IMG/VR virus record: IMGVR_UViG_3300035670_000083
Location: 1 to 64,000 of that record
Length of the DNA: 64,000 nucleotides
Reading direction: 5' to 3' (one strand)
Source: a virus
Shown here: positions 1,642-58,780 of the stretch, piece by piece
Layout: the number at the start of each line of letters is the position of its first letter
Numbering within the stretch: the first letter of the stretch is position 1
Program-made: the position numbers and the translations under genes
The notes under the pieces: model-generated
What the model saw: the letters and a program-made list of their open reading frames with translations, nothing else
Database searches by the model: none
What the model was told of the DNA's origin: nothing

Positions 1642-1673
1642 AAAAAACCCACTCATTTGAGTGGGTTTTTTTT
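1640..1673. terminator. Bidirectional intrinsic terminator
   Basis: A-run-CCCACTCA-ttt-GAGTGGG-T-run between convergent genes. Confidence 0.85.
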
Positions 1674-17567: not shown

Positions 17568-17585
17568 GATTTCTGTTATTTATTG

Positions 17586-19950: not shown

Positions 19951-20190
19951 TTATTTTATTGATTTTAAAAAATTTTGTATCTTTCTTAAATCTTCTAAGT
20001 CTAAATTGGATTCTGCTATTTCTAAACAGATTTCTTCTTTTAAATTGTTTATTCTACCTGTTATTTCTACAGGAGATGATGTTTGTTGAACATTCATATT
20101 TGTTCCTCCTTTGATTCCAGTGGAATTGAAGTTAGCTGAATCTGGACTTAATTCATTACCTGCAAAGAAATTTTCATACTTTTTTATCAT
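19951..20190 (-). CDS. Hypothetical protein with MIKKYENFF leader
   Basis: ATG at 20190 overlaps the PPK2 stop and gives the leader motif; preferred over 20220. Confidence 0.55.
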   Translation of the reverse strand: MIKKYENFFAGNELSPDSANFNSTGIKGGTNMNVQQTSSPVEITGRINNLKEEICLEIAESNLDLEDLRKIQNFLKSIK

Positions 20191-21752
20191 ACTAGAACAT
20201 TTATTACTTCTGGATACCAATTGGTTTGTGATTCATCTTTTCCTTCATAATCTACTTTATCAAGTACATATCTGATGGCATTCAATCTTCCTATCTTTTT
20301 ATCATTTGAGTTAACAATAACCCAAGGTGTCATTCGAGATGATGTTTTTTGAAACATCTCATTTTTGAAGTCCCCTATCATTTCAAATTTGTCTATTACT
20401 TTAGCATCATTTGGTGAGAATTTCCAATATTTAAGTGGGGATTCTTGTCTGATGTTAAACCTTTGTAATTGTTTTTCTTTTGTTATAGAAAACCAAAATT
20501 TTATAAGTATTGTTCCATTTCTGATAAGGTTTTGTTCCCAAGGAACTACTTTATTCATAAAGTCTTTATATTGTTCTTCAGTACAATAACCCATTGCTGG
20601 TTCAACTACTGCTCTATTATACCAACTTCTATCAAAGAAAACAATTTCACCTTCTTTAGGAAGTTCTTTTTCATATCTTTGAAACCAATTATTTTTCTCT
20701 TCTTCTGTTGGAATTCCCATTACAACAACTCTGAAATGTTTTGGATTCAAGTATTCAACAAATCTTTTAATTGTCGATCCTTTTCCTGCGGCATCTCTTC
20801 CTTCAAAAACTATAGCAACTTTCTTATTGTTTTTAACAACCCATTCTTGTAATTTTAATAGTTCAACCTGGAGGTTATATTTCTCTTTTTCGTATTTCTT
20901 CCTTGTGAGTAAAGAATATTCTTTATCGTATTCGTCAAAGTGATCATCATCACCGAATACTTCTTTTTGTTTTCTTATTCTTTTTTCTAAAGTATTGATA
21001 TAATTATCAATTTCTATTCTTATTGTTTTTCTAGCTGTTCTTTTTTTGAGAACTATTATTTGAAATATTTTTCTTAATAAAGCTTCAACATTCAATTCTC
21101 TGATAATATCTTCACCGAATTCTTCTTTTAAAAGATCCAATTCATCTTTTACATTGATATTTTCAAATCCTTCTTCAAATTCAAGTTTATTTGTTCTTAG
21201 ATTATATTTTATCAATTCCATTAACTTACTTTTAAATCTATTTAAATTCTCAACTATTTCTTCAACTACTTTATCTAGTTCATCGTCAGTTAATTTATTA
21301 AAATCATATGATTCGTTTCTTGAATCTGATGTGATAATTTGGAATTCTATTGACTTCGAATCAATAATTTTTTTATCAAGATATTTTATATCATTAATAC
21401 TTGTTTTATATAATTGTGTTCTATTCGGGAAAGTTCCCATCAGATTAAATTTGTACTGAAATCTCAGACCAATTGAATTTATATAATTCTCTAATTGTGT
21501 GAGTACTTCTATAAGTGCTTTTAATTTATCTTTATTAACTTCAATACCAACAGATAGAAAATCTGAATTTGTAAAACATTCTGTTGGTATATCTATATTA
21601 TAGTCTTTTTCATACTTTTTAAATTCGAAAGAAATTCCATAATCCGATATCTCATCGATTATTGATTCTATAATAGAAATATCATTATGATCAATATAAT
21701 TTTTTATAGATTCATTGGTTTTTAAAAAATTATTATAATATTTAATTCTCAT
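20187..21752 (-). CDS. ppk2: Polyphosphate kinase 2 with long N-terminal extension
   Basis: LQVELLKLQEW, FEGRDAAGKGSTIKR, FDRSWYNRAVVE, SPLKYWKFSPND, PWVIVNSNDKK. Confidence 0.92.
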   Translation of the reverse strand: MRIKYYNNFLKTNESIKNYIDHNDISIIESIIDEISDYGISFEFKKYEKDYNIDIPTECFTNSDFLSVGIEVNKDKLKALIEVLTQLENYINSIGLRFQYKFNLMGTFPNRTQLYKTSINDIKYLDKKIIDSKSIEFQIITSDSRNESYDFNKLTDDELDKVVEEIVENLNRFKSKLMELIKYNLRTNKLEFEEGFENINVKDELDLLKEEFGEDIIRELNVEALLRKIFQIIVLKKRTARKTIRIEIDNYINTLEKRIRKQKEVFGDDDHFDEYDKEYSLLTRKKYEKEKYNLQVELLKLQEWVVKNNKKVAIVFEGRDAAGKGSTIKRFVEYLNPKHFRVVVMGIPTEEEKNNWFQRYEKELPKEGEIVFFDRSWYNRAVVEPAMGYCTEEQYKDFMNKVVPWEQNLIRNGTILIKFWFSITKEKQLQRFNIRQESPLKYWKFSPNDAKVIDKFEMIGDFKNEMFQKTSSRMTPWVIVNSNDKKIGRLNAIRYVLDKVDYEGKDESQTNWYPEVINVLV

Positions 21753-37645: not shown

Positions 37646-38260
37646 TTAAATTGGACAATGTGATGCGGAGTAAATGAATTTCCAATTTCTTTTAATATTC
37701 AATCCTAATGATTCTGCTGTTGTTATAATATCCTCTAAACACTCAGAATCTGATCCTCCAACGATTTCAATATTTTCACCTTTTAATTTTTGAAAAATTT
37801 CATAAAGTTTTTTTGGTAAATGGAACCATTTATGATTATTGCCAATATAAACTATTATAGTTCCTTCTTTTGTTGGAAAGAATTCACCTTTTTTCAATAA
37901 ATTTTTATTTTCTTTTTCTTTTATGTTGTTATAAACTTTTTTATCCAGTATTTTTTTATAGAAATCGGCATTAACATCATAATTGTATCTTTTTTCAATT
38001 AGTTCTTTTTGATTTGTAAAGTGATATAGATCATCATGGATAGGTATTTCGGGTTCTTCGTGATAAAGGTAATCTTTATCTACATTCTTACCTTCTACGT
38101 GGTTGTCCCAAATTTGATAAACATTTTCAAAGTTATTACAATGCTTCTTTAATTCGTTTAAATAAAGTTCTGTAAAGAATTTAGAGAATGACTTTTGTAC
38201 ATCAACAATTATAAGTGAAGTTTTAATATTGTGACTTTCAAATGTTTTAAGATATTTCAT
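37646..38260 (-). CDS. Isochorismatase/cysteine-hydrolase-like protein with MKYLKTFES leader
   Basis: LIIVDVQKSF, IEKRY, VGGSDSECL (Asp-Lys-Cys triad pattern). Confidence 0.6.
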   Translation of the reverse strand: MKYLKTFESHNIKTSLIIVDVQKSFSKFFTELYLNELKKHCNNFENVYQIWDNHVEGKNVDKDYLYHEEPEIPIHDDLYHFTNQKELIEKRYNYDVNADFYKKILDKKVYNNIKEKENKNLLKKGEFFPTKEGTIIVYIGNNHKWFHLPKKLYEIFQKLKGENIEIVGGSDSECLEDIITTAESLGLNIKRNWKFIYSASHCPI

Positions 38261-38327: not shown

Positions 38328-38975
38328 TTAAAGTGGAAGTTCTTCTTCTCCTTCTTCACCTTCTGTTTCTTCTCCTTCTATTTCCTCGAATTCTCCTTGT
38401 CCCTGAGCTTGTCCTTGCATCTGAGTTTGTCCCTGAGCTTGTCCTTGCATCTGAGCTTGTCCCTGAGCTTGTCCTTGCATCTGAGCTTGTCCCTGAGCTT
38501 GTCCTTGTCCTTGAGCTTGTCCTTGCATCTGAGATTGTCCTTGCATCTGAGTTTGTCCTTGAGATTGTCCTTGCATTTGAGGTTCTTCTTGCATCTGTCC
38601 CTGTCCTTGCATTTGACCTTGTGGTTGTGCTTCCACTTGAATCTGTGCTTGTTGACCTTGAGGTTGAGTCTGTACTTCTCCTTGTCCTTGTGCATCACCA
38701 GTTAAAGCTCCTGCTGGAATTTGATCAACATTTAAGAAGTTCTGTGTTATATATTTTACAACTTCTTCAGCTATATCAACATCACCAAAGAATTGTCTTA
38801 GGTTTTTACCAGTGTTGTCTTTCACTTTCTTAACATAAGCGTTAATCATTGATTGTGGTATGTCAATCATTGTTCTCACCTTATAGATGTCGTTAACTTG
38901 TAGAACAGATTCTTTAATGATCTCTTCTTTTCTTTTTTTGGTTTGATAGTTTCCAAATTTTCTAATATGTTTCAT
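38328..38975 (-). CDS. Protein with MKHIRKF leader and Gln/Gly-rich repeat tail
   Basis: QGQAQMQGQAQ repeats; acidic end. Confidence 0.7.
   Translation of the reverse strand: MKHIRKFGNYQTKKRKEEIIKESVLQVNDIYKVRTMIDIPQSMINAYVKKVKDNTGKNLRQFFGDVDIAEEVVKYITQNFLNVDQIPAGALTGDAQGQGEVQTQPQGQQAQIQVEAQPQGQMQGQGQMQEEPQMQGQSQGQTQMQGQSQMQGQAQGQGQAQGQAQMQGQAQGQAQMQGQAQGQTQMQGQAQGQGEFEEIEGEETEGEEGEEELPL
38395..38580. repeat. Coding tandem repeat (QGQAQMQGQA, about 30 bp unit)
   Basis: CCCTGAGCTTGTCCTTGCATCTGAGCTTGT and variants in tandem. Confidence 0.85.
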
Positions 38976-39588: not shown

Positions 39589-40038
39589 TTATTTTGTTTT
39601 TTCTTTGATTGAATCTAATAAAGATTTTCCAGTTCTATTTGGTGGATTTTTTTTAAATTCTTCAATATCTTTATTTAATTTTTCTTTTTCTGATAAGGCA
39701 TCTTTCAATTCTTTGTTTTTTCTCATCAGGTTTTTATCAACTTGTATCAATCTAAGGTTCAATTCTTCGTATTCTGATTCAAGTTTTACTAGTTTGATAG
39801 AATCTTTTTCAAATTTCATAAGAAGTGTTTCATATTCTTTTCTTATCTTGTTTTTCTCTTTTTCAATTAATCTATTTTCTTTTTCAAGTTCTTTTCTTTG
39901 TTCTTTGTGAGTATTTCCATCTAACATTGCTTTTGTATAGAAAACTCCACATACTATAAATAGTATAATAATAATAACTGATTTTAGATCTAATCTAGCG
40001 ACGAATGTTGTTCCGAACTCTTTTAGGTTTTCTTTCAT
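39589..40038 (-). CDS. Membrane-anchored coiled-coil protein (possible i-spanin)
   Basis: N-terminal TM (VIIIILFIVCGVFY) followed by a long coiled coil. Confidence 0.4.
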   Translation of the reverse strand: MKENLKEFGTTFVARLDLKSVIIIILFIVCGVFYTKAMLDGNTHKEQRKELEKENRLIEKEKNKIRKEYETLLMKFEKDSIKLVKLESEYEELNLRLIQVDKNLMRKNKELKDALSEKEKLNKDIEEFKKNPPNRTGKSLLDSIKEKTK

Positions 40039-40116
40039 GATTTTTAATAATTTTTTGATTTAGTATTCAAAAAAATAACTATATTTGTAAATATATATCA
40101 AAAATAAAACTCCCTA

Positions 40117-40644
40117 ATGATTAAAAGAATTGTATCATATGACTTTGATGGAACTTTATGTTTCACACCTGAACCTATTGAAGGTGAAAAAGTTTGGAAA
40201 AAAGAAACTGGAACCGATTGGCCTTATACTGGTTGGTGGTCAAAAAAAGAAACATTGGATTTGAATATTTTTGATATTCCTGTTAATCAATTTGTTTATA
40301 GGAAATATCTTGATGATATGGCTCGTAAAGAGGAAAAGAATGATACTTTTGTATTGTTGGCAACTGGTAGACTTGAAAGATTAAGAAAAGAAGTTGAAAA
40401 AGTTCTGAATCATCATAACTTATCATTTGATAAGGTTTCTCTTAATACAGGTGGAGATACTTATACATTCAAGAAAAGACTTTTTGAGGATTTGATTAAA
40501 GAATATAATCCTGAGGTTTTTGTTATGTATGATGATAGGCATGAGCATTTGGTAAAATTTGAAGAATGGGCGAAAACACAACCTTGTCGTGTAGAAATCA
40601 TAGATGTTACTAAGAGTAATAAAACACCAAAAATTATAAATTAA
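40117..40644 (+). CDS. HAD-superfamily phosphatase
   Basis: YDFDGTL, ATGR, K, YDDR; TATATTTG at 40080-40087 upstream. Confidence 0.8.
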   Translation: MIKRIVSYDFDGTLCFTPEPIEGEKVWKKETGTDWPYTGWWSKKETLDLNIFDIPVNQFVYRKYLDDMARKEEKNDTFVLLATGRLERLRKEVEKVLNHHNLSFDKVSLNTGGDTYTFKKRLFEDLIKEYNPEVFVMYDDRHEHLVKFEEWAKTQPCRVEIIDVTKSNKTPKIIN

Positions 40645-40648
40645 AAAT

Positions 40649-40930
40649 ATGAGTACAATAACAGAAAAAAAATCAAAATCAAAAGTAGATGAAATACTTT
40701 CAAAGCCATTTAAGTTGATTCTTCACAACGATGATTATAATTCCTTCGAATGGGTAATAACTTGTTTGATTAAAGTTTGTGGACATGATCATCAACAAGC
40801 TGAGCAGTGTGCTCATATAGTTCATTTTAACGGTGAATGTGATGTTAAAAGAGGTGATTATGAGAAACTATCTGTGATGAAGGAGAAATTACAGAATGCT
40901 GGTTTGTCAGTTACTATAGAATCAAATTAG
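40649..40930 (+). CDS. clpS: ATP-dependent Clp protease adaptor ClpS
   Basis: LILHNDDYNSFEWVITCL..VCGH...QAEQCAHIVHFNG...VK.G. Confidence 0.9.
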   Translation: MSTITEKKSKSKVDEILSKPFKLILHNDDYNSFEWVITCLIKVCGHDHQQAEQCAHIVHFNGECDVKRGDYEKLSVMKEKLQNAGLSVTIESN

Positions 40931-40951
40931 TAAAGTATATCAAGAAATAGA

Positions 40952-40982
40952 CTGAACCTCACATTACATATACATCTTGTTA
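40952..40982. repeat. Site S0: truncated attC-like site (right arm only)
   Basis: CTGAACCTCACATTACATATACATCTTGTTA is nearly identical to the right arm of S4 (43349-43379). Confidence 0.7.
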
Positions 40983-41117
40983 TATTCAGTAATTTTTAAA
41001 TTATTTTCAAAAAATCGTTTTTTTTTTTTATTAATATATAGAATATAAATATTATCAGAAGAAATGAAAAATGTAAAACTATATAAAGTGGATACGTATT
41101 AATTTTTTTATTACACA

Positions 41118-41160
41118 TAACGTTCCGATTATTTGCGTTCGGTGGGGCGTTACACCACCA
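41118..41160. repeat. Site S1: degenerate attC-like site (left core only)
   Basis: TTATTACACATAACG is identical to the approach to S9; no matching right arm. Confidence 0.55.
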
Positions 41161-41171
41161 ATGATTATTAT

Positions 41172-42004
41172 ATGAGTAAAGAAATGAGAAGGTTAATAGT
41201 TACTTTTAATAAGTTTGTTATTAAAGAAAAGTCTAATAATATTAAAAAATAGTTTCAAAATATGATGCTCCGTATGGAATTATTTTTGATGGGGAAAACA
41301 AAATATTAGTTGGTGATATGCACCAAACACCAGTTGAATTATCTAAAAAACTTGAAAATAAAGTAGTTAATGTTGCAAACAAATATGGTTATTATGGTGA
41401 AGGTATTGGTTTGGAACATAACGAAGCAATCACCAAATCATCTTTTTATGAAAGATTAGACCCCAAAAAACATTATGGTTCTTGGGATAGAAAATTAATT
41501 GAAAGTGGTGAAGTACCTGAAGATAAAAAATATTTTTTTTTGTATGCTTTGTTTTCAAATCCAAAAGAAAATCATAGATTAGAAAAATTATTGGAAAATA
41601 CGGAAGAAGAAGATACAATTTTTTATGTCTTACTAAAAACTATACCCGATTGGTCAGCAGATATGGGTAAATTTAGTTTAGGACAAAAAGAACTAAATAA
41701 ATTTCTTAAAGAAATAAGTGAAAATGGAATTGATTTTATTCAAATGTCACAACAAAAAGCAGATGAAAAATCATTATCAGAATTTTTAGATTTAGGAGAA
41801 AAATTACAATGGCCTGAAAAAAATTGGCAAGATTATCCAAATATGGCAGGTAAATTTGCAAGAGTGGCGACAACCATTAGAGACCAATTTTTAATTAATG
41901 CTGGACCTGGGGTTTATTTTGTCGGTGCGGGACATCTTAAAGATATTGTAAAAATGGGCAAAGAAAAAAAATTATCTTTAATAGGGGGCGAAAAAATCAT
42001 GTAA
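41172..42004 (+). pseudogene. Frameshifted cassette gene (leader MSKEMRRLIVTFNKFVIKE)
   Basis: ATG at 41172 stops at TAG 41250; adding one A to the run at 41244-41249 joins it in frame to ORF 41318..42004. Confidence 0.65.
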
Positions 42005-42017
42005 AAAATATTGTGTA

Positions 42018-42065
42018 TAACGTCCGATGATAAACAATCGCTTTAATGTTGTTTATCATTTGTTA
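42018..42065. repeat. Site S2: attC-like hairpin
   Basis: TAAC-GTCCG-ATGATAAACAA-loop-TTGTTTATCAT-TT-GTTA; perfect 11 bp stem. Confidence 0.9.
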
Positions 42066-42143
42066 TATTCAGTTAAATTTTTTCAATTATTTCAAAAAAC
42101 CGTTTTCTTTATTAATATATAAAAGAAAAATAATATTAAAACT

Positions 42144-42818
42144 ATGAAACATATAAAAAAATATGAAACTTTTCTAGAAAAAAAATGGATACTAGGAATA
42201 AATGAAAACATTTTTGATAAAATTGAATCACTAGTTAAGGGAAAATCAGACTCTGGTAAAATTATATCCGAATTCTTAACTAAGAACGGAATTAAAGAAA
42301 CTGGGACTGCATATTCAATTCTCTATTTGGGCGGTGCTAATCCAGGCAAATCCGAATTAAGTCACCCATTTGATTATTTACATTATACACCAGGTATCGC
42401 TAAGATTACAGAAGATGGTGTTTTAGTATTAAATGATGAAAAATCTAAATCATTAAAAACACCAGATACATTATCATTTCTAGCAATTATTGAAAAAGAT
42501 GATATTGTTAAAAATTGGACATTTGGATTAAAACAAGGGTGTAGTGTAAATAAAAATGATTATACTTTTGATTTAACAAAGGATATTTCAACTCTAACTT
42601 TTAAAAAATCTATGTGGTCAATGTTGAAACAAACTTGGATTAAAGGAGAAGATGAAGTTGTAGAACTTGATAATGATATTACTGAACTTAAAGAGGAAGA
42701 TACTATATCCTTCAAAACCCCTATGAATATGATAACTCTACAACAATGGGTTGATAAGTTGAATGAGACAGGATGGGTTAAAGAAAATAGTAAATATTTT
42801 AAAGAATATATAAAGTAG
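42144..42818 (+). CDS. Cassette gene, hypothetical, MKHIKKYETFLE leader
   Basis: Single ORF between S2 and S3 with own TAATATATA (42113-42121). Confidence 0.75.
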   Translation: MKHIKKYETFLEKKWILGINENIFDKIESLVKGKSDSGKIISEFLTKNGIKETGTAYSILYLGGANPGKSELSHPFDYLHYTPGIAKITEDGVLVLNDEKSKSLKTPDTLSFLAIIEKDDIVKNWTFGLKQGCSVNKNDYTFDLTKDISTLTFKKSMWSMLKQTWIKGEDEVVELDNDITELKEEDTISFKTPMNMITLQQWVDKLNETGWVKENSKYFKEYIK

Positions 42819-42901
42819 GCAATAATCCACAAATAAAAAACACCAATTCGTTAAGTGAAATTGATTATTTTATATCCACAATTGGAAAACGAAACAGAAC
42901 T

Positions 42902-42949
42902 TAACGGTTGAGAATATGTGTTCGTTTTAATGACACATATTCTTTGTTA
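42902..42949. repeat. Site S3: attC-like hairpin
   Basis: TAAC-GGTTG-AGAATATGTGT-loop-ACACATATTCT-TT-GTTA; same geometry and nearly the same loop as S2, different stem sequence. Confidence 0.9.
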
Positions 42950-42975
42950 TATTTAGTATCAAAAATTTTATACAA

Positions 42976-43218
42976 ATGAAAAAATGTAAATGTATTAAAG
43001 AATCTTCTTGGTTTTTAATTGATGATTCCTTCGATAAGAATTCTAAATTAAATGGTGGTGGATTTTCTTTTCAAGTAGGTAGTGAATATGATTATTTTGA
43101 AGAAGATACACCATTTGGAAATGGTATGTCGGTTATCCATCCTAAACATGGGAAAGAAAATCCTACTGGTTTTGATGAAAGAAGATTCTACGAACACTTT
43201 GAAATAATAAACTCATAA
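42976..43218 (+). CDS. Cassette gene, hypothetical 80 aa
   Basis: Single ORF between S3 and S4. Confidence 0.7.
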   Translation: MKKCKCIKESSWFLIDDSFDKNSKLNGGGFSFQVGSEYDYFEEDTPFGNGMSVIHPKHGKENPTGFDERRFYEHFEIINS

Positions 43219-43236
43219 AATTTTTGATATTGAACC

Positions 43237-43379
43237 TAACGATACTCAGATATATTTAGGTTTTCTTTTTAATGTAGTGTGAGATTTGAAACACTACCTG
43301 TCAATATACCAACAAACTCTATTAGAAGCACTTACCTTCAATTAACCACCGAATCTCACATTACATATACACCTTGTTA
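43237..43379. repeat. Site S4: chimeric attC-like site
   Basis: Left 37 nt identical to S6 left arm; remainder is a different hairpin (GTAGTGTGAGATT...AATCTCACATTAC) ending ACATATACACCTTGTTA like S8. Confidence 0.8.
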
Positions 43380-43488
43380 TGTGTAGGTGTGATTATTTAC
43401 CACCAAACTCTATTCGGAGAACTGAAAGAAAATTTTAGAAAAAAGAAGGGAGGGAAATTTAATTCAGAATATTTTATATATATCATCT

Positions 43489-44304
43489 ATGATACTCAAA
43501 TTTAATCAGTTTATAACTGAAAGACTTTCCTATTCTGAAGATGTTGAGATGATCTCAAAGATTATAATTGAATACTTATATGGTAAAGAAAACTGGGAAT
43601 CAGAAGAAGTGATAAAAATAGATAATTCGGTTATAAATGAAGTAAGAATACAATTCATAGATAATTTAAGTAAGTTAGGAAAAAAATCATCATTTAATCC
43701 AAATAAATCAGATTATAATAATCGTATGATATTTTTAGAATTTGATCCAGATGAAATCACCGAAGGATTGTTAAATCATGAAGTATTTCATGGGTGGGAA
43801 TGGATTCGAAATGAAGGAAAACATTTAACTAATTCTTTTCAATTCGCAATTATTCAATTAAATAATTACTTTGAAGAAGATGAAAACATATCTGAAATTA
43901 TTCAACTATTTTATTTAATGTCAGATGCTGAAATTAGATCTCATTTAAATAGTGATATATTTGAATTTAAAAGATGGAAAGAGGATAAAAATACCACTTC
44001 GATGGAAGAAATAGATTTATTAATAGAGGAAACAGATACATTTCAAAATTATCAATTTGTGAAAAAATTTAATCTAAACGAATATTTAAATAAATTGAGT
44101 ACTGAGAAATTAGATGAATTTATATCAGCAGTTGAACAAATGAAGTATATGAAAGATGGTGAAGAGTCTGAAATTATGGTGAAGAGATTTTCTGATTTAG
44201 AGAGAAGTAAATTTATACAAAAGTTAAATATTATACACAAACAACAAAGTGAAAAAATTACTAAATATTTAGGAAAATTAATATTATATTTCAGAAACTC
44301 TTAA
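43489..44304 (+). CDS. Cassette gene, putative zinc metallopeptidase with MILKFNQFITE leader
   Basis: LNHEVFHG (HExxH) plus downstream DAEIRSH glutamate. Confidence 0.6.
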   Translation: MILKFNQFITERLSYSEDVEMISKIIIEYLYGKENWESEEVIKIDNSVINEVRIQFIDNLSKLGKKSSFNPNKSDYNNRMIFLEFDPDEITEGLLNHEVFHGWEWIRNEGKHLTNSFQFAIIQLNNYFEEDENISEIIQLFYLMSDAEIRSHLNSDIFEFKRWKEDKNTTSMEEIDLLIEETDTFQNYQFVKKFNLNEYLNKLSTEKLDEFISAVEQMKYMKDGEESEIMVKRFSDLERSKFIQKLNIIHKQQSEKITKYLGKLILYFRNS

Positions 44305-44345
44305 ATTTTTTTTAGAAAAAATTTATTTGATACATTTTTAATTAC

Positions 44346-44353
44346 TATATTTG
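44346..44353 (+). promoter_or_regulatory. Bacteroidota-type -7 promoter element
   Basis: TATATTTG 20 nt upstream of ATG 44373; TTTG at 44326-44329. Confidence 0.6.
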
Positions 44354-44372
44354 CGTATATAATAAAAATAAA

Positions 44373-44626
44373 ATGGAAAATCTCAAACAAGAAAATAACT
44401 ACGAAAAATTTGTTATCAGACAGAAGGTGGTTGGGTATTAAAAGAAGGCGTGGCTAAAAAGGAAGAGATAAGTTTTTTTGTTGTTAGTCCTGATGGTAAA
44501 GAACTTACTTGTTTAGATGGTTCAAATATATTCTCTTCTGTTGATAAATCTGATTTGTTAGAATCGTTTAATATGAGGTTTAAAACAAACTGTGTTAGTG
44601 TAGAAAGACCAAATGTTTTTGAATAA
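44373..44626 (+). pseudogene. Frameshifted cassette gene (about 84 aa if repaired)
   Basis: MENLKQENNYEKFVI then one base missing near 44418, then TEGGWVLKEGVAKKEEISFFVVSPDG...RPNVFE*. Confidence 0.6.
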
Positions 44627-44652
44627 GAAAATAATTGAAAAATAATTCAATA

Positions 44653-44732
44653 TAACGGTTGCAAATATGAGAAGTAAATTTTTTCCATAAAAAAATAGAA
44701 AAATCAAAATTTATTTCTTATATTTGTTGTTA
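44653..44732. repeat. Site S5: attC-like hairpin
   Basis: TAAC-GGTTG-21 bp stem with two G:T pairs-TT-GTTA. Confidence 0.88.
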
Positions 44733-44758
44733 TATTTAGTAAAAATTAATTTATACAT

Positions 44759-44938
44759 ATGAAATACGAAGCACTTAAAAAAGAATATTATGCAGTTTAT
44801 GAAAAAGAACCAAGACACCAGAATGAAAAGAATGGTGTGATACTTGCACCATATAACACGAAAGAAGAAGCTGAACAAGCGAGAATTAAATATGGTTATA
44901 GTGATGATAACTACTATGTTGATAAACTCATAAATTAA
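44759..44938 (+). CDS. Cassette gene, hypothetical 59 aa, absent from the ORF track
   Basis: MKYEALKKEYYAVYEKEPRHQNEKNGVILAPYNTKEEAEQARIKYGYSDDNYYVDKLIN fills the S5-S6 interval. Confidence 0.7.
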   Translation: MKYEALKKEYYAVYEKEPRHQNEKNGVILAPYNTKEEAEQARIKYGYSDDNYYVDKLIN

Positions 44939-44951
44939 TTTTTATTGAATA

Positions 44952-45073
44952 TAACGATACTCAGATATATTTAGGTTTTCTTTTTAATATATACTAAAAA
45001 CAATTTATGAAAGATAATAAACACATAAAAAGTTTCAACGATCATCAAGAAAACTTGAATATATCTGATGTTA
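44952..45073. repeat. Site S6: attC-like hairpin with promoter and gene start in the loop
   Basis: TAAC-GATAC-TCAGATATATTTAGGTTTTCTT...AAGAAAACTTGAATATATCTGA-T-GTTA; 22 bp stem, two G:T; TAATATATA at 44985-44993, ATG at 45007. Confidence 0.9.
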
Positions 45074-45288
45074 GTGGTAGTGAAATATTAAAATATCTTG
45101 ATGATAAATATCATGTAAAAGATAATCTAATGATTGTTGGTAGATTTGATAAGAACAAAAAATATAATTATATTCAATTGTCTAATGAAATATCAAAGGT
45201 ATTTGGTTTGTCAACACAACAATCATTAGATTTAGTAGAAAAGTGGAAAGATATTAGATTTGAGAAAATTATGAAAAATAGATTTTAA
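45007..45288 (+). CDS. Cassette gene beginning inside site S6
   Basis: MKDNKHIKSFNDHQENLNISDV-SGS...; the Val codon is the GTT core. Confidence 0.75.
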   Translation: MKDNKHIKSFNDHQENLNISDVSGSEILKYLDDKYHVKDNLMIVGRFDKNKKYNYIQLSNEISKVFGLSTQQSLDLVEKWKDIRFEKIMKNRF

Positions 45289-45302
45289 TATTTAATTATC
45301 AC

Positions 45303-45350
45303 TAACGTCCGATGATAAACAATCGTTTTAATGTTGTTTATCATTTGTTA
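45303..45350. repeat. Site S7: attC-like hairpin
   Basis: Identical to S2 except one loop base. Confidence 0.9.
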
Positions 45351-45461
45351 TGTGTAGGTGTGGATTATTTACTACTAAACTTCAATCGGAGAACTGAACA
45401 AAAATTTTAAAACAAAAAGAAGGGTGGGTTTTTTAATCTTACTATTTATATATAAAAGAAA

Positions 45462-45890
45462 ATGATGAAAGATTTGAGACAGTTTATTAAAACAACCATA
45501 CGTGAGTTTTTGAATGAAGCATACATTGATGAGGATGGTAATTTAAAAGACTTTAATGATAAAATATTCTATGATTTTGATAAAATTAAAAAGTTTGTAG
45601 ATTGGTTTCAAAGTGAATATAGTGATTATACTCATAAACAGGGTTGGTCTATATTCGATTCTGATACAGAAGCACCTAATGAAAAATATCATAGTGAAAG
45701 AACTTTTAATGGTAAAAAATTGAATGGATATTATTGGCAAGTTCAAAGATTAGATTCACCAAGTGATGACGAAGCATTATTTGGGAAATTACCAAATGAT
45801 TATAAGGCTGATGATTTAGCAAGAAAGTTAGGTTTAATGGTTGATGAATACGGTGTGGTTTATGGTTGGGATGGACAATCTTTTTTATAG
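45462..45890 (+). CDS. Cassette gene, hypothetical, MKDLRQFIKTTIREFLNE leader
   Basis: Single ORF between S7 and S8 with TTATATATA upstream. Confidence 0.75.
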   Translation: MMKDLRQFIKTTIREFLNEAYIDEDGNLKDFNDKIFYDFDKIKKFVDWFQSEYSDYTHKQGWSIFDSDTEAPNEKYHSERTFNGKKLNGYYWQVQRLDSPSDDEALFGKLPNDYKADDLARKLGLMVDEYGVVYGWDGQSFL

Positions 45891-45960
45891 TGTGTGGGAT
45901 TTTTCTTTTAAAATTTTCAACCGAAATATTGATTAGAACGATGAATGGAACACTTACACA

Positions 45961-46050
45961 TAACGGATGGGTGTATATGTAGGTTTTTTAACTTTAAAAT
46001 TTAATATATACTTATGAACTGAATAAAAAACTTACATATACACCTTGTTA
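45961..46050. repeat. Site S8: attC-like hairpin with TAATATATA in the loop
   Basis: TAAC-GGATG-GGTGTATATGTAGGTTTTTTA...TAAAAAACTTACATATACACC-TT-GTTA; 21 bp stem, one G:T. Confidence 0.9.
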
Positions 46051-46081
46051 TGTGTTAGTAAAAAATAAAAGGAAAAAGAAT

Positions 46082-46387
46082 ATGAAAAGATTAAAATACA
46101 TTAAAAGATTCAATGAATCAAATGAAATGGATATTGAAATTGAATTAATTGGTCCTGATATAGATGATATTTTAGATGCAATTAACTTCATAAACAATAA
46201 CTATGATGTGAGTGTAAATCCAACAGATTTTCAAGAAGGTTCTGATATGCCTTATGCTCATAAAAGAAATCAAAATTATTCAATTTTTGTTAAGTTAAAT
46301 CCTAGTGGTGATGAAAAAAGTCATATCAGATTTATTAATGATTTGTTGGATGAAAACGGATTCTCTTGTAGGTTGTATATGATTTAA
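46082..46387 (+). CDS. Cassette gene, hypothetical, MKRLKYIKRFNES leader
   Basis: ATG at 46082 preferred over the GTG at 46052. Confidence 0.75.
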   Translation: MKRLKYIKRFNESNEMDIEIELIGPDIDDILDAINFINNNYDVSVNPTDFQEGSDMPYAHKRNQNYSIFVKLNPSGDEKSHIRFINDLLDENGFSCRLYMI

Positions 46388-46414
46388 TGATATTATTTAT
46401 TTTCTTATTACACA

Positions 46415-46544
46415 TAACGATACTCAGATATATTTAGGTTTTCATTTTTAATATATAAACAAAAATAATTTAACAACATGAAAAGTTCAAATAATGTAAA
46501 AAGTTTCAAAGAGTTCAATGAAAACTTGAATATATCTGATGTTA
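46415..46544. repeat. Site S9: attC-like hairpin with promoter and gene start in the loop
   Basis: Same family as S6 with compensatory change (TTTTCATT/AATGAAAA versus TTTTCTT/AAGAAAA); TAATATATA at 46449-46457, ATG at 46478. Confidence 0.9.
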
Positions 46545-46708
46545 GTGATAGTTTTTTGTCACCCGAAGAATTTTTAATTGATTGGGAAGGTAAAGATGAT
46601 TCAACACACCCCAATCAAGATATTAGAGACGAATGGACTAAAAGAATTAATCAATTAAAAATTTATTCAAAAATGGTTCTTGATAACACTTTAAAAAATT
46701 ATCACTAA
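46478..46708 (+). CDS. Integrase-proximal cassette gene beginning inside site S9
   Basis: MKSSNNVKSFKEFNENLNISDV-SDS...; its stop TAA is part of the terminal TAAC core. Confidence 0.75.
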   Translation: MKSSNNVKSFKEFNENLNISDVSDSFLSPEEFLIDWEGKDDSTHPNQDIRDEWTKRINQLKIYSKMVLDNTLKNYH

Positions 46709-46745
46709 CTATATTATATATGTAATGACCTATAAATAATTGATT
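46706..46745. other. Site S10: candidate attI-like primary integration site
   Basis: Last TAAC core, followed by T rather than G and by no hairpin; 36 nt before the integrase ATG. Confidence 0.6.
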
Positions 46746-47549
46746 ATGAATGAAAAGGGTAAGTCAACTTTAAAGATTTGTGAACAAAAACTTAATTATC
46801 TAAATTATTCTAAAAGAACGATTGATAATTATTTATCACATATTAATAGATTTTTAAAATCACAAAATAAATCATGTTTGCATTTATCATCTAATGATTT
46901 TCAGTCATATTTAGATAATTACAAATTTACTTCTATATCGCAACAAAACCAAGTTATTAATTCTATTCGATTTCTTTATAAAGAAGTTCTCGGTAAAAAG
47001 TATGATAAAGTCTCTTTCAAAAGACCTAAATCTGAAAAGAAACTTCCACAGGTTATAGATGGTGATTATATAAAATCACAATTATCTAAAATTGATAATC
47101 TTAAACATAAGGCAATCCTCACACTAACATACTCGGTTGGATTAAGGGTTTCTGAAATAACCAATCTTAAAATTGAAGACATTGATTCAAAAAGAATGAT
47201 CATTCATATAAAAAATGCAAAAGGAAAGAAAGATAGGATTGTTCCACTTTCTGAAAATGTTTTAAATTTGCTTAGATATTATTGGAAACAATATAAACCA
47301 AAAGAATACCTTTTCAATGGATTATCCGGTAGATATTCAATTCAATCCTGTCAGAAAATATACAAAAAATATATTGATGAAAAATCATCATTTCATACAT
47401 TAAGACATTCTTCATTTACTAATTTACTTGAGTCAGGAACAGATTTGCGGATAATACAGAAAATAGCAGGTCATTCAAGCTCAAAAACAACCGAAATATA
47501 TACTCACGTTTCAAATCAAATTTTAAGGAAAGTTAAATTACCCATCTAA
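46746..47549 (+). CDS. Tyrosine recombinase, integron-integrase-like but without the IntI insertion
   Basis: SAM-like N-domain (YSKRTIDNY, SISQQNQVINSIRFLYKEVL), KKLPQVI, catalytic GLRVSE, AKGKKDR, HTLRHS, AGHSS, TEIYTH all intact. Confidence 0.92.
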   Translation: MNEKGKSTLKICEQKLNYLNYSKRTIDNYLSHINRFLKSQNKSCLHLSSNDFQSYLDNYKFTSISQQNQVINSIRFLYKEVLGKKYDKVSFKRPKSEKKLPQVIDGDYIKSQLSKIDNLKHKAILTLTYSVGLRVSEITNLKIEDIDSKRMIIHIKNAKGKKDRIVPLSENVLNLLRYYWKQYKPKEYLFNGLSGRYSIQSCQKIYKKYIDEKSSFHTLRHSSFTNLLESGTDLRIIQKIAGHSSSKTTEIYTHVSNQILRKVKLPI

Positions 47550-49748
47550 TCCCCAAGATTTTCTAGCTTCTACCATCCTTCTATTATAAGAGATTTTATT
47601 TCTTCTTATATCCAGTAATTGTTTATAATCAACTCCTTCTTCATATGATATTTTATTTAAAATATCATCAACTTTATTTCTTATCTGTATATCTTCTAAA
47701 TTATCAAAATAATCATCTACCATCCCTCTGAAATCATTCTTACCAAAAATAGATGTTAGGTTAACCAAAGTCATAACCGTATCATCATTTTTATTACCAT
47801 CAGCTTTATAAGTAATATTTCCAGTTCTTGTTGTATGTTTTATAAATGTTGTCATTTCATCTATATTTTCGTTATTATAAATAATAATTGATCTATCTTG
47901 CATTTTTTCTTGGTAATCTTTCACCATTAGGTTTTTATTCTCACCAACTTTTAATCCTATTTTTTCATCTAACGCATCTACTCTGTGTTTAAATCTAAAG
48001 AATATAGATGATCCATAGTTGTTATTTCCTTCAAATACATTCGGTAAGTGAGCAAGTAACTCATATCCGTATGTATTGACTTCTAATACAGCTTTTAAAT
48101 TATCTGTATCAAAATGATCAAAAGCTAAAACATAAAGTAATTCTGATAATTCATTGACGGATATAAGATTGCTTCTATACATTCCTATTTGTTCAAGTTG
48201 AATAAAGTCAAGTATGTTTCTATAATTCTTATTTTGTCTTTCTATTAGATCTATCGGCTTTGATTTTAATTTGAAAATATTTATCACCGTATAGTCCTGT
48301 CCTAATCCTTCAGATACATCTATACTTAATAGTATCCGATAATTTTTTCTTATTTGTGGATTATAAATTTCTTTATTCGGATGCCATTTTAGATCTTTGT
48401 AAGAGAATTTAAGTTTTTCTTCTATTTCAGGAATTTCCTGCCATTCAAATAATGTTTTTCTATCAGTTAATTCTTTTATTAATCCATCATCTAATAATGA
48501 TCTAGATGAGTTAATAAACTTCAAGTCAAATTCTTGGTTAAAAGCTTCTTCACCACCAATATCTTTGATTGTTTGTTTTTTCCAAGTTGTTATTTCAGCA
48601 ATTTCTGGTAATTTAATATCATTTATTGTTTCTTTAATGATATCTTCTTCCTGACAATCATCAGAATTAAAAACATGAACAACCCACTTATTTAACTCGT
48701 CATCAAATCTCAGCTCTGATTTATTTTTTGGAAAAGATTCTTTAATCCTACTTAAAACATCTTCTGGTTTGACATTGTAGTGATCTAATTTCTTTTGATT
48801 CAATCTTATGTATGTCACGAATCTTTTCGGAACTTGCCACCAATAAACTCTTTTTGCCACATAAGATGATTTTTCGCCTTCAGGCTTTTCAGCTTCTATT
48901 AAAAGTTTGTGAAATAAATTAAATCCGTTTGGAGTAGAGGTTATTATAATTTTAGAATTATCGATGTTGGCAATAGTAGGAAACACCGATTTGTAGAATT
49001 TATCTGCAATATTATCTGGTAGATAAGCAAACTCATCTAAATATAAAAAGTCAGCAGATTGACCGATAGAAGCGGTTTTTGTTGTTGCAAATCCTTTTAT
49101 ACGACTTTTATTTTCAAATGACATGAATTTCTCATTCCACTTTTTAATACCTTGTTGTAAGAAAAATGGAAGTCTTTGGTATATTTCTTTCATTTTATCA
49201 AGGATCTCAGTTGCTGTATCCAACTTATTTGCTGTTACAAGAACGTTTTTGTTATTATTAAAAAGAACAAAATGTAATATGGTTATTGCTGATGTGATAG
49301 TATTATGTGATAAAATACCATTTGTATAATATCTATGATTTGGATGATCAATAGATAAATCAAACATAGATAGTTTATGATTTGTTTTTTCTATCATTTT
49401 AACTTTTGATATTCCTTGATCAGTTTGTATGTAATCGCCTATTTTTAAATCTTTTATGTATATTTGATTAAAGTCCACATCAAATAAAATGTGATTATCA
49501 GCACCGTTAAGAAATAGTCCATTTTCTAGTTTTAAATTATATTCACTATAAGGTTGTGTTATATGTATTTGCGGAGCTATTTCATAACCAGTGTCTGTTT
49601 TCACTGATAAGTTGCAACTTATTGTATTCAATATCTTTTTGGATATATCATGTTCATTCAAATCTAAATTTCTGTATTCGAAAACTTCTATATACTCAAT
49701 TAATTTTTTTATTAAATATATTATGATAAGAGTAAAAAATCTAAACAT
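47538..49748 (-). CDS. terL: Terminase large subunit, C-terminal part preceded by C-intein
   Basis: Intein blocks then SHN|TITSA; LYLDEFA (Walker B), IITSTPNG, SIDVSEGLGQDY, NDDTVM. Confidence 0.9.
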   Translation of the reverse strand: MFRFFTLIIIYLIKKLIEYIEVFEYRNLDLNEHDISKKILNTISCNLSVKTDTGYEIAPQIHITQPYSEYNLKLENGLFLNGADNHILFDVDFNQIYIKDLKIGDYIQTDQGISKVKMIEKTNHKLSMFDLSIDHPNHRYYTNGILSHNTITSAITILHFVLFNNNKNVLVTANKLDTATEILDKMKEIYQRLPFFLQQGIKKWNEKFMSFENKSRIKGFATTKTASIGQSADFLYLDEFAYLPDNIADKFYKSVFPTIANIDNSKIIITSTPNGFNLFHKLLIEAEKPEGEKSSYVAKRVYWWQVPKRFVTYIRLNQKKLDHYNVKPEDVLSRIKESFPKNKSELRFDDELNKWVVHVFNSDDCQEEDIIKETINDIKLPEIAEITTWKKQTIKDIGGEEAFNQEFDLKFINSSRSLLDDGLIKELTDRKTLFEWQEIPEIEEKLKFSYKDLKWHPNKEIYNPQIRKNYRILLSIDVSEGLGQDYTVINIFKLKSKPIDLIERQNKNYRNILDFIQLEQIGMYRSNLISVNELSELLYVLAFDHFDTDNLKAVLEVNTYGYELLAHLPNVFEGNNNYGSSIFFRFKHRVDALDEKIGLKVGENKNLMVKDYQEKMQDRSIIIYNNENIDEMTTFIKHTTRTGNITYKADGNKNDDTVMTLVNLTSIFGKNDFRGMVDDYFDNLEDIQIRNKVDDILNKISYEEGVDYKQLLDIRRNKISYNRRMVEARKSWGLDG
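49302..49748 (-). mobile_element. Split intein, C-terminal fragment
   Basis: Block B-like ADNH, IKDLKIGD, block F MFDLSI...YYTNGI, block G SHN followed by Thr. Confidence 0.88.
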
Positions 49749-58174: not shown

Positions 58175-58780
58175 ATGAAATGGTTAAAGAAATACTCTAT
58201 TTTCTTAGAACAAGATGAAACTTCTGATGATATCAATTCAACAGAAGAAACTTCTTTGATAGATGATAATGACAAAACAAATCAAGAATCGTTAGATCTC
58301 ATTCAAAAAGATTTATCAGAATTTGGATCAAAAAAAGGAGTTGTTGAGGATATTTTATCTGATATGGAGAAGAATGATTCTCAAATTGATTCTGAATTAC
58401 AACAAAAGGTTTTTAACAATCAAAGAGAAGATTCTAAAAGAAATAAGTATCTAAGAATGTTAGTATCTCTTCATAAATTAAAAAGAAGAACAGATAAACT
58501 TGCTTTAGCTATTGAAACTGATGTAGAAAAAAAGTCAGAAGTTCAAAAGCAAATCTCAGATCTTATAGAAAGATTCAATCAATTAGAAAATCCATCTCAG
58601 AAAGTCAAAGTTGATTCACAGAGAAAGAAATCAGAAGAATATCTGAAGGAATTGAATCTGAAAATCAATGATAATAAAAAGGAATTGGCTTTATCAGAAA
58701 AGAACTATGATAAGAAAAAAGAAGATTTTGAGAAACAAATGAAAATAGAAGAGGAAAAGATAAAATCATTACAAAAATAG
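58175..58780 (+). CDS. Coiled-coil protein with MKWLKKYSIFLE leader
   Basis: TTATATATA upstream; heptad pattern. Confidence 0.6.
   Translation: MKWLKKYSIFLEQDETSDDINSTEETSLIDDNDKTNQESLDLIQKDLSEFGSKKGVVEDILSDMEKNDSQIDSELQQKVFNNQREDSKRNKYLRMLVSLHKLKRRTDKLALAIETDVEKKSEVQKQISDLIERFNQLENPSQKVKVDSQRKKSEEYLKELNLKINDNKKELALSEKNYDKKKEDFEKQMKIEEEKIKSLQK

Follow-up and report, generated by a model that had tools for sequence, protein, structure and literature searches.

Roughly a quarter of the genes on a huge-phage genome fragment start with a common peptide of about ten residues and, judged from sequence comparison, this leader is a genuine N-terminal module that is portable between unrelated payloads. 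The best single reading of the tag, at a probability of about 0.4, is a T4-like capsid-targeting role, because a T4-type head module (portal, protease-scaffold and Gp23 propeptide) is encoded on the same contig. The window (the whole stretch of 64,000 nucleotides that was analysed) contains a cassette array at 41172-46708, in which an earlier note had recognised seven leader-like N-termini and suggested a library of virion-packaged, injected effector proteins. The genome examined comprised 118 genes on a 100-kb fragment of a Bacteroidota-type huge phage of roughly 550 kb. Most genes of the array begin with the tag, which may serve to load proteins into the virus head in a T4-like manner.

A common N-terminal tag on a quarter of the genes

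The tag has the approximate consensus M-K-x-[IL]-[KR]-x-[FY]-[EN]-x-[FY] and is found at the N-terminus of 20-30 of the 118 genes, where about one would be expected. The strict pattern matches 20/118 genes, whereas its rate at arbitrary positions is 0.57% and just 2 of the 465 internal methionines match, which counts for a capsid role. A position matrix (PSSM) was trained on the 20 canonical leaders and its threshold set at the 99.9th percentile of 27,819 internal windows; 29-30 of the 118 N-termini score above it. Synonymous codon use of the leaders equals that of the genome, and I/L and F/Y swap freely. Conservation at the amino-acid level, but not at the codon level, indicates selection on the peptide. 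Families with bodies down to 23-47% identical have an invariant leader, which is kept where the family alignment has a deletion directly behind it and is retained in hundreds of orthologues. A common family among the tagged payloads was not found by family searches.

Leader frequency is 25% on this contig, 14-22% in LR745206, LR756501 and LR756500 (the consensus in LR756500 being MKYIxxYxxF[IL]xE) and 0-2% in Lak-A1 and the Tenacibaculum phage PTm1. Phages Freya and Ingeline, which have a related integrase type, reach only 0-7%. By these frequencies the tag is specific to a clade and extends to related phages of 460-735 kb. A TATATATA-type motif lies 5' of 21 of the 30 leader genes versus 34 of the 88 others (p = 0.005). 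That the same motif precedes the sheath and portal genes speaks for a capsid role, as does the lack of the tag on the recognised cytoplasmic enzymes UvsX, NAMPT, TerL, integrase, ClpS and glutamine synthetase.

Tagged genes outside the array point in both directions. A leader-bearing 201-aa gene (58175..58780, plus strand) lies directly upstream of the tail-sheath gene and is syntenic in LR745206.1. A core, non-cassette gene with the same leader (37646..38260, minus strand; 1226 homologues) represents a family in which the first 10 residues are conserved and followed by a variable linker of 3-5 residues and then the domain; at 70-77% identity across the clade this family has a housekeeping look, which argues against a capsid role, and so does the weak tag of a PPK2 enzyme (20187-21752). 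The notion that the tag is special to cassette cargo is contradicted by its presence on about a quarter of all genes, such core genes included. The earlier note had missed this spread of the leader through the genome. The array, with 4 leaders in 9 genes versus 26 in 109 for the rest of the contig, is not clearly richer.

A cassette array between attC-like hairpins

The array and its neighboring features described here all lie on the plus strand. Directly upstream, and given as context, is a ClpS homologue (40649..40930; Pfam ClpS, 4.7e-18). A 12-codon mini-ORF (41064..41102; repeat family D3/D11) with a TAATATATA motif upstream and the leader-like start MKNVKLYK... looks like a cassette made up of promoter and leader only. 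Eight hairpins with TAACG / GTTA[TCG] ends, as in attC sites, were found along the array (S1-S3 and S5-S9), all of which fold, S1 (41118..41153, TAACG...GTTAC) with paired ends. The first cassette starts with a 26-codon ORF carrying the leader variant MSKEMRRLIVTFNKFVIKE (41172..41252). The body of the gene lies beyond a frameshift in the A-run at 41244-41249, where contigs of two other studies (runs X4, X5) have one extra A. Family searches gave no family match for the body (41246..42004, 252 codons of open frame). Behind S2 (42018..42066; repeat D6; 98% identical to S7) lies a 224-aa cassette gene with the canonical leader MKHIKKYETFLE (42144..42818), which has 62 homologues in huge-phage contigs. 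These homologues (37-73% identity), ordinary genes elsewhere, all have M1, K2 and F10, and K5 is nearly invariant. S3 (42902..42950) precedes an 80-aa cassette gene that is devoid of a leader (42976..43218). The following site (43237..43380; repeats D4, D12 and D20) is composite or degenerate, its left arm resembling S6/S9 and its right arm S8, and did not form a single hairpin in the folding run.

Next comes a 271-aa cassette gene with the short leader MILKFNQFITE and an HEVFH motif (43489..44304). A possible second broken ORF was seen at 44373-44626. S5 (44653..44733) matches part of the 462-kb phage LR756500.1 at 87.6% identity and is followed by a 59-aa cassette gene lacking a leader (44759..44938), with a host-type TAnnTTTG motif upstream. 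S6 (44952..45074; inverted repeat I8, direct repeat D7) spans a TAATATATA motif and the beginning of a 93-aa cassette gene (45007..45288) whose leader is in the +3 register, MKDNKHIKSFND; the site takes in the ATG and the first 22 codons, which encode the leader and ENLNISDV. S7 (45303..45351) is the piece most widely shared among metagenome contigs, with a depth peak at 45112-45395. A 142-aa cassette gene (45462..45890) and S8 (45961..46051), with a TAATATATA-like motif in its loop, precede a 101-aa cassette gene, likewise with a +3-register leader, MKRLKYIKRFNE (46082..46387), for whose protein no relative was found among viral contigs. S9 (46415..46545; repeats D4 and D7) again includes a promoter motif, an ATG (46478) and the first 22 codons of the last, 76-aa cassette gene (46478..46708; repeat D7). 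The proteins encoded from 46478 and 45007 have their first ~24 residues in common and unrelated payloads. A 267-aa tyrosine recombinase (46746..47549; Pfam Phage_integrase, 6e-34, and SAM_4) forms the end of the array. It scores 160 bits with the integron-integrase model TIGR02249, whose cut-off is 265, and its best model is XerA-like, likewise below that model's own cut-off.

All seven N-termini quoted in the earlier note are present (41172, 42144, 43489, 45007, 45462/45465, 46082 and 46478). Four of them are clear leaders by PSSM (42144, 20.1 bits; 45007, 18.0; 46082, 15.4; 46478, 7.0), those at 43489 and 41172 are variants, and the one at 45462 drops out. Both 43489 (2.4 bits) and 45462 (-0.1) score below threshold. 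The N-terminus at 43489 is nevertheless taken as a real leader, since F5, F8 and E11 are invariant while the family is otherwise 23-47% identical. At 45462, residues 4-142, nearly the whole cassette protein, align at 69% identity with an internal stretch (residues 406-544) of a 634-aa protein from a different viral contig, and its N-terminus is rejected as a leader. As far as motif matches go, five of the seven ORFs are indeed preceded, at a distance of 6-23 nt, by a promoter-like motif of their own, TAATATATA or TATATATA, and two cassette ORFs have a host-type motif 5' of them. The label "late" is unproven for the former, because uvsX and a clamp-loader-like gene carry the motif too, an observation that weighs against a capsid role. 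The content of the array differs between related phages in metagenome contigs, in line with the exchangeability that had been supposed. Differing leader styles had been read as a hint of capture from other phage lineages; every such style recurs elsewhere in the same genome, and capture is not indicated because the cassette homologues belong to the same huge-phage clade.

The head module and a possible role of the tag

The T4-type head morphogenesis genes that a T4-style capsid-targeting sequence (CTS) needs are present on the contig. They include a portal (Portal_T4, 2e-57) and a Gp23 capsid protein (3e-27) with an N-terminal extension of ~86 residues containing KWTPVLE, LAE and INE. Upstream of Gp23, a 707-aa protein has ~12 mid-protein repeats containing [LI]AE and an N-terminal domain that matches Peptidase_S77 in 18/18 aligned members (17 orthologues and the protein itself), the best at 5e-6, below the Pfam cut-off but consistent. 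On this evidence we identify it as a gp21-like protease fused to a repeat scaffold. A strict [LI]-x-E at residues 6-20 is not enriched in leader genes (31% versus 24% of others, p = 0.30), and the [LI]AE form of the scaffold repeats and capsid propeptide is rare in leaders, which counts against a capsid role. In favor of it, 11 of 55 leader genes have the composite aromatic-x-x-aromatic-[LIVM]-(x)-E, versus 2 of 211 others. The T4 CTS, MKTYQEFIAE, fits the PSSM in 1 of 8 registers, within the top 0.6% of internal windows, a weak likeness.

If the tag targets capsids, the first ten or so residues of cassette proteins would be an address tag common to the clade, with basic residues, then an aromatic-x-x-aromatic pair and usually Glu. 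The tag would form a short helix, with a variable linker between it and the payload, and would dock the protein onto the prohead core, the gp21-like protease fused to the repeat scaffold; the docked protein would become enclosed in the head and leave later with the DNA. The array beside the recombinase would be an exchangeable subset of a far larger tagged cargo set, and S6 and S9, which themselves contain a promoter, an ATG and the tag, would each provide these to a different payload fused in frame. We infer that tagged proteins bind to the core and are packaged and ejected, perhaps after cleavage, and that they may act as effectors or against host defences. A heavy demand of the capsid role, and a point against it, is that a quarter of the genes would be cargo, amounting to >100 species in a roughly 550-kb genome; to our knowledge this far exceeds anything documented. 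An extension that we hold to be unlikely is a plug-and-play system for injected proteins, with hairpin sites encoding phage promoter, start codon and capsid-address tag and >100 further cargo proteins tagged genome-wide. Recombination that places an ORF in frame after one of these sites would bring about its expression together with the head genes, and its protein would be loaded into the prohead and delivered to the next host.

Possible, if somewhat doubtful, is a real peptide signal unconnected with the capsid, the cassette proteins acting in the cytoplasm of the infected cell; the tag might then recruit a phage chaperone, control stability through a protease adaptor or form a shared oligomerisation or membrane-contact helix. 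The presence of the tag on very conserved families and on the PPK2-domain enzyme would suit such a signal, as would its sheer frequency (~25% of genes), the failure to find a uniform protease site behind it, the ClpS homologue adjoining the array and a DnaK-like ORF on a related contig. The basic-hydrophobic pattern of the tag also resembles generic chaperone-binding peptides. What tells against it is that the tag tracks a clade with a particular T4-type protease-scaffold, whose C-terminal domain was found only in leader-positive genomes, a co-occurrence confounded by relatedness, and that tagged genes are neighbors of the sheath and portal genes, with a promoter motif in common.

Shared N-termini could also reflect a constraint on translation start or at the nucleotide level, the genome being AT-rich and the host making no use of Shine-Dalgarno sequences; they would then not serve as a protein signal. 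It is indeed general for codon 2 to be Lys (AAA) and for early codons to be A-rich, and in many genes the promoter motif lies 3-7 nt from the ATG, which suggests leaderless mRNAs dependent on their first codons. We regard this as very improbable given that conservation acts on amino acids, that interconversion at positions 7 and 10 (aromatic) and 4 (I/L) takes non-synonymous changes, that the motif persists on a contig of 36.5% G+C and that the tag is nearly absent (0-7%) from the other AT-rich Flavobacteriia phages PTm1, Freya and Ingeline. Less improbable, but still quite unlikely, is that the array is for the most part a dump, in which the recombinase has deposited fragments and genes in decay, rather than a curated effector library, in which case the tag would occur there only because a quarter of the phage genes have it. 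The leader frequency of the array, not clearly above background, agrees with this, and so do the frameshift in the first cassette, the leader-only mini-ORF at 41064, the chimeric site at 43237-43380, the cassette at 45462 that is a piece of a larger protein and the possible broken ORF at 44373-44626. Yet the ORFs of five cassettes are unbroken and each have a promoter-like motif, related strains have an undamaged copy of the frameshifted gene, and purifying selection acts on the 42144 and 43489 families, whose motifs are conserved across 23-73% identity.

Known systems and a probable zincin-like payload

T-even internal proteins are diverse, counter host defences and have only the CTS in common (PMC3012670), and the T4 CTS loads even foreign proteins into the head (PMC5694885). 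The tag described here resembles it as a short N-terminal peptide common to otherwise unrelated proteins, in the gp20, gp21 and gp23 type of head assembly, in the aromatic-x-x-aromatic-hydrophobic-x-Glu of a subset of leaders, and in its diverse, fast-changing payloads. It differs in a consensus about three residues longer at the N-terminus and weakly like MKTYQEFIAE, in the absence of a uniform terminal [LI]-x-E site and in being known from genes alone; it also stands on ~25% of genes, whereas the T4 CTS is borne by four proteins, IPI, IPII, IPIII and Alt, according to Mullaney and Black 1996 as cited in PMC5694885. The hypervariable internal-protein locus of T-even phages, as far as the account in PMC3012670 and its reference 23 goes, likewise holds diverse genes with only the CTS in common. 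Interchangeable small genes, own promoters and a common N-terminal tag link it to the array. There, exchange is by homologous recombination between flanks; here, it is apparently by a tyrosine recombinase on hairpin sites, two of which themselves encode the tag.

The array is also integron-like in its single-ORF units between imperfect palindromes whose end cores are conserved (TAACG ... GTTAT), in the tyrosine recombinase at one end, which has SAM_4 as its N-terminal domain, and in alternative junctions at the cores in metagenomes. Unlike in integrons, the recombinase scores below the integron-integrase cut-off, its gene is placed downstream in the array's own orientation, many cassettes have a promoter-like motif of their own where integron cassettes are mostly promoterless and depend on a common promoter, and the system resides in a lytic-type huge phage. 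In the giant phages phiKZ, 201phi2-1 and SPN3US, many head-internal proteins are cut after Glu by a gp21-related protease (PMC5694885). The propeptides of these ejection and inner-body proteins are long (often >100 residues), end in A/S/G-x-E and are backed by mass spectrometry, in contrast to the shared decapeptide predicted here from gene sequences.

The HExxH motif pointed out earlier is present as HEVFH at residues 97-101 of the 43489-44304 product, with H97, E98 and H101 invariant, and the protein is probably a small zincin-like peptidase domain followed by a helical bundle. In the AF2 model (mean pLDDT 90.6 overall, 87-95 per ten-residue block over residues 21-110), strands at 39-85 precede the HExxH-bearing helix at 92-107, and the leader is a separate helix (residues 5-12) with lower pLDDT than the body. 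The best zincin matches of the model in Foldseek (selecase, jannalysin and abylysin) are at E 0.17-0.5. VIA-align (Z <= 4.6) returned a list rich in zincins, among them M1, M2 and M3 peptidases, SPRTN, ArdC and VgrG2b.

Distribution and conservation of an N-terminal leader

The contig is linear and viral, measures 100,284 bp at 28.6% G+C, with the window forming its first 64 kb, and is ~18% complete according to CheckV. Its tail sheath (1417 aa) shares 52–55% identity with the sheaths of the uncultured 634–642-kb phages LR745206.1 and LR756502.1; a 735-kb phage, the Lak phages and Tenacibaculum phage PTm1 have more remote sheath relatives. These relationships identify the contig as a fragment of a huge myophage from the group that infects Bacteroidota. 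A short N-terminal leader peptide, hereafter also called tag, is widespread on this contig. The strict leader pattern is found at the N-terminus of 20 of the 118 called genes, whereas arbitrary positions match it at 0.57% and internal methionines in 2 of 465 cases. A position matrix was derived from the 20 contig genes matching ^M..[ILVM][KRMS].[FY], and every N-terminus was scored in nine registers, with 27,819 internal windows as background. With the 99.9th percentile as cut-off, 29–30 genes score above it, where about one would be expected. The consensus reads M-K-[HY]-[LI]-[KR]-[K/x]-[FY]-[EN]-[ENS]-[FY], with shorter and longer registers occurring as well. Products of tagged genes have a median length of 152 aa, compared with 202 aa for the others, and almost all of them lack a family match; Pfam and PHROGs searches with all cassette proteins and ten further tagged proteins returned no informative family.

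The earlier note had described such leaders on seven open reading frames (ORFs) of the cassette array and read them as a mark of cassette cargo. The observation is real but was wrongly scoped: four of nine array genes are tagged, against 26 of 109 in the remaining contig, so that the array is not clearly richer, and every leader style of the array is found again elsewhere on the contig. Leader frequencies are 25% on this contig, 16% in LR745206, 14% in LR756501 and 22% in LR756500 (consensus MKYIxxYxxF[IL]xE), falling to 2% in Lak-A1 and 0% in PTm1, and the small genes 5' of related integrases in Polaribacter phage Freya and Cellulophaga phage Ingeline carry no leader. Together, these distributions indicate that the tag belongs to a huge-phage clade, and neither to the recombinase system nor to Flavobacteriia phages in general. 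Among the papers that could be searched, none was found on such leaders in metagenomic phages.

Among the seven quoted cassette ORFs, those starting at 42144, 45007, 46082 and 46478 exceed the matrix cut-off, and no relative of 46082 was found among viral contigs. The HExxH protein starting at 43489 scores below it; its leader is nevertheless taken as real because the family keeps F5, F8 and E11, together with I42, invariant among nine clusters at 50% identity. H97, E98 and H101 are likewise invariant across seven longer sequences, which bears out the HExxH motif noticed previously as genuine and conserved. The 41172 leader sits on an ORF of 26 codons, where one A added in the run 41244–41249 restores the frame with the following 252 codons; exactly this extra A is present in contigs from two other studies, so that related phages have the gene whole, whereas on this contig it is either broken or wrongly assembled. 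Each of the seven quoted N-termini is present, but that of 45462 was rejected as a leader: the entire 142-aa protein (45462–45890) aligns at 69% identity with residues 406–544 of a 634-aa protein (L020:2786-4690) on a 154-kb IMG/VR viral contig. Its N-terminus is the beginning of a domain that is internal elsewhere, and cassettes can thus carry lone domains from larger phage genes.

Three features show that selection acts on the leader as a peptide. Synonymous codons within leaders follow genome usage (CAT makes up 64% and CAC 36% of His codons inside leaders as well as genome-wide, and four codons serve Leu), conserved positions exchange I with L and F with Y, swaps that need non-synonymous changes, and the motif is kept on a related contig of 36.5% G+C. 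The leader is also portable. In the non-cassette family of 37646–38260 (1226 members), ten conserved N-terminal residues precede a linker of 3–5 residues that varies in both length and sequence; the domain behind the linker is 70–77% identical. The 42144 family (62 members) holds M1, K2 and F10 invariant and K5 nearly so, and retains the leader in three members lacking the 10–30 residues directly after it. AF2 models the HExxH protein at a pLDDT of 90.6 and predicts its leader as a separate short helix of lower confidence (residues 5–12), followed by a loop.

Two tagged or weakly tagged proteins were noticed beside these families. A tagged 215-aa protein (38328–38975, minus strand), with an orthologue in LR745206.1, has a long (Q-G/A/M)n repeat tail encoded by 12- and 18-nt DNA repeats. 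A 521-aa protein (20187–21752, minus strand) joins a C-terminal polyphosphate kinase 2 domain (PPK2, 5e-78) to a 280-residue N-terminal extension with a weak leader-like start.

Layout, contents and possible turnover of the cassette array

Between 40.9 and 47.5 kb, small plus-strand ORFs stand in a row, separated by imperfect palindromes that start with TAACG and end with GTTA[TCG], and the row terminates at a tyrosine recombinase of 267 aa (46746–47549). Directly 5' of the array lies a phage-encoded ClpS adaptor homologue (40649–40930, Pfam 4.7e-18). Neither the integrase nor a 42144 homologue was found in LR745206.1, and a nucleotide search of the array against cultured-phage records gave a single match, of 97 nt, to a hairpin site in LR756500.1.

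Two hairpin sites, 44952–45074 and 46415–46545, each span a promoter-like motif together with the start codon ATG and codons 1–22, and ENLNISDV is encoded in their right arm. The ORFs starting there (45007 and 46478) are similar to a few bases beyond the GTTAG core and unrelated thereafter, as would be expected if a site-borne promoter-plus-tag module had been fused in frame to two different payloads. The claim that most of the seven quoted ORFs have their own late-type promoter motif holds for the motif, TAATATATA or TATATATA, which lies 6–23 nt 5' of the start in five of them; uvsX and a clamp-loader-like gene, however, have the motif in front of them as well, so that the label "late" is an assumption. 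Across the whole contig, the distance from TATATATA-type motifs to the ATG is bimodal, with 3–7 nt in 22 genes and 19–28 nt in 26 genes (examples lie 5' of 3534, 10895, 20187, 43489, 45462 and 58175). Should the motif work like the T4 late -10 element, transcripts of the 3–7-nt class would have no 5' untranslated region or almost none.

Metagenome contigs from three studies (four runs) were aligned to 40000–48500 at a likeness threshold of 90%, interpretation being confined to stretches with contig cover in the run concerned. Contig depth is highest at the hairpin sites, above all in bin 45112–45395, which contains site S7 (45303–45351), many loose contig ends begin at hairpin cores, and core-to-core joints such as 42067 to 45960 and 44733 to 45302 occur. 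Depth and joints agree with sites common to many different cassettes in related phages; as a sign of cassette turnover the joints are weak, since many have short sides (<30 nt) and likeness was set at 90%. Several units are broken or partial, namely the frameshifted 41172 gene, the mini-ORF at 41064 that consists of a leader only, the chimeric site 43237–43380 and the 45462 domain fragment. At 44373–44626, a 22-codon ORF after a host-type TATATTTG motif is followed by a 58-codon GTG ORF in another frame, which may be a second frameshifted cassette gene.

No cassette protein belongs to a Pfam or PHROG family. Structure prediction and Foldseek, proposed in the earlier note for the payloads and run on 43489, gave a four-stranded sheet, then the HExxH helix, then a helical bundle. 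Foldseek placed the minimal zincins selecase, jannalysin and abylysin on top, albeit weakly (E 0.17–0.5), and VIA-align filled its list with zincins of several families, again weakly (Z ≤ 4.6). The whole model retrieved only generic helical-bundle matches in both, and the protein atlas only unnamed viral clusters. The protein is probably a small metallopeptidase, and we assign nothing further. Homologues of 42144 occur solely on contigs of huge phages, the longest measuring 611 kb, and where the context is readable they are ordinary genes with no hairpin cores or integrase nearby. This argues that cassettes draw on the clade's own gene pool and, with the recurrence of all array leader styles on the same contig, speaks against the capture from other phage lineages previously suggested.

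T4-type head genes and the possible role of the tag

The contig encodes a Gp20-type portal (92637–94349, Pfam 2e-57) and a Gp23-type capsid protein (97908–99635) whose Pfam match starts at residue 87. Residues KWTPVLE in the capsid's N-terminal extension recall T4 gp23, and LAE and INE come after them. Directly 5' of the capsid gene and outside the window, a 707-aa protein (95742–97865; L005:11742-13865) has ~200 N-terminal residues matching Peptidase_S77 in all 18 aligned members (itself and 17 orthologues); the best E of 5e-6 is under Pfam's cut-off yet the match is unanimous, and one member matches S80 too. Profile searches against solved structures found nothing for this domain. The middle is taken up by some twelve repeats of 14 residues (YSEY[LI]AENLDKNI); beyond them lie an acidic stretch and a C-terminal domain that is conserved and that, among the genomes tested, was matched only in leader-positive ones. 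The 1515 homologues of the protein lie on contigs no longer than 598 kb. A gp21-like protease and an [LI]AE-rich scaffold in one protein would fit T4-style maturation with cutting after Glu.

In T4, internal proteins reach the core via a capsid-targeting sequence (CTS) of 10–20 residues, which gp21 removes and which is able to bring in foreign proteins as well (PMC5694885). The internal proteins of T-even phages form a diverse counter-defence set with the CTS as sole common feature (PMC3012670). The best single explanation for the present tag, to which we give a probability of roughly 0.4, is a T4-like capsid address that the phage uses very extensively; array proteins would then be the exchangeable, reshuffled part of a larger tagged cargo bound for the phage head. 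Consistent with this, 11 of 55 leader genes vs 2 of 211 others show the T4-like composite aromatic-x-x-aromatic-[LIVM]-(x)-E, most clearly in the HExxH family (FNxF[LI]xE). The sheath and portal genes have tagged genes as neighbours, recognizable cytoplasmic enzymes are without the tag, and the TATATATA-type motif, found 5' of sheath and portal, precedes 21 of 30 tagged vs 34 of 88 other genes (p = 0.005).

The main rival, only somewhat less probable in our estimate, is that the tag serves some other partner. Several observations count against a capsid address. Unlike the T4 CTS, the tag stands on about a quarter of genes without enriched [LI]-x-E behind it: plain [LI]-x-E is no commoner there than at other N-termini, and the [LI]AE form is rare. 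The T4 CTS itself scores like random sequence when aligned Met to Met and fits the matrix only if shifted by three residues, where it ranks no higher than the top 0.6% of background. To our knowledge, a quarter of a proteome as head cargo is without precedent. Some tagged families resemble conserved enzymes, for example that of 37646, and the PPK2 protein is weakly tagged; the motif 5' of uvsX and the clamp-loader-like gene counts on the same side. An isochorismatase-like assignment of the 37646 family was considered and is unsupported, profile searches against solved structures having found nothing.

Were the tag a capsid address, the DNA of Bacteroidota huge phages would enter the host together with a protein cargo of great size and rapid reshuffling. 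This would change the view of the first minutes of infection and of counter-defence in uncultured megaphages, and a simple rule on sequence would allow virion cargo to be predicted from metagenomes. With any other purpose, a signal borne by a quarter of the proteome would still lack an explanation in an abundant phage clade, where single tagged families have hundreds to more than a thousand homologues in public data.

Further genes of the contig deserve mention. The large terminase subunit (47538–49748, minus strand) matches the T4-type ATPase only from residue 150; its extra N-terminal part ends in a motif resembling a mini-intein junction (SHN/T), and no intein family was detected. At 15981–18509 (minus strand), NAMPT (PHROG 1.8e-140) adjoins a cytidylyltransferase-like plus NUDIX protein, a putative NAD salvage pair; such pairs are used by phages against NAD-depleting defence. 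A glutamine-synthetase-like protein with Gln-synt_N and Gln-synt_C domains is likewise phage-encoded (1672–2694, minus strand).
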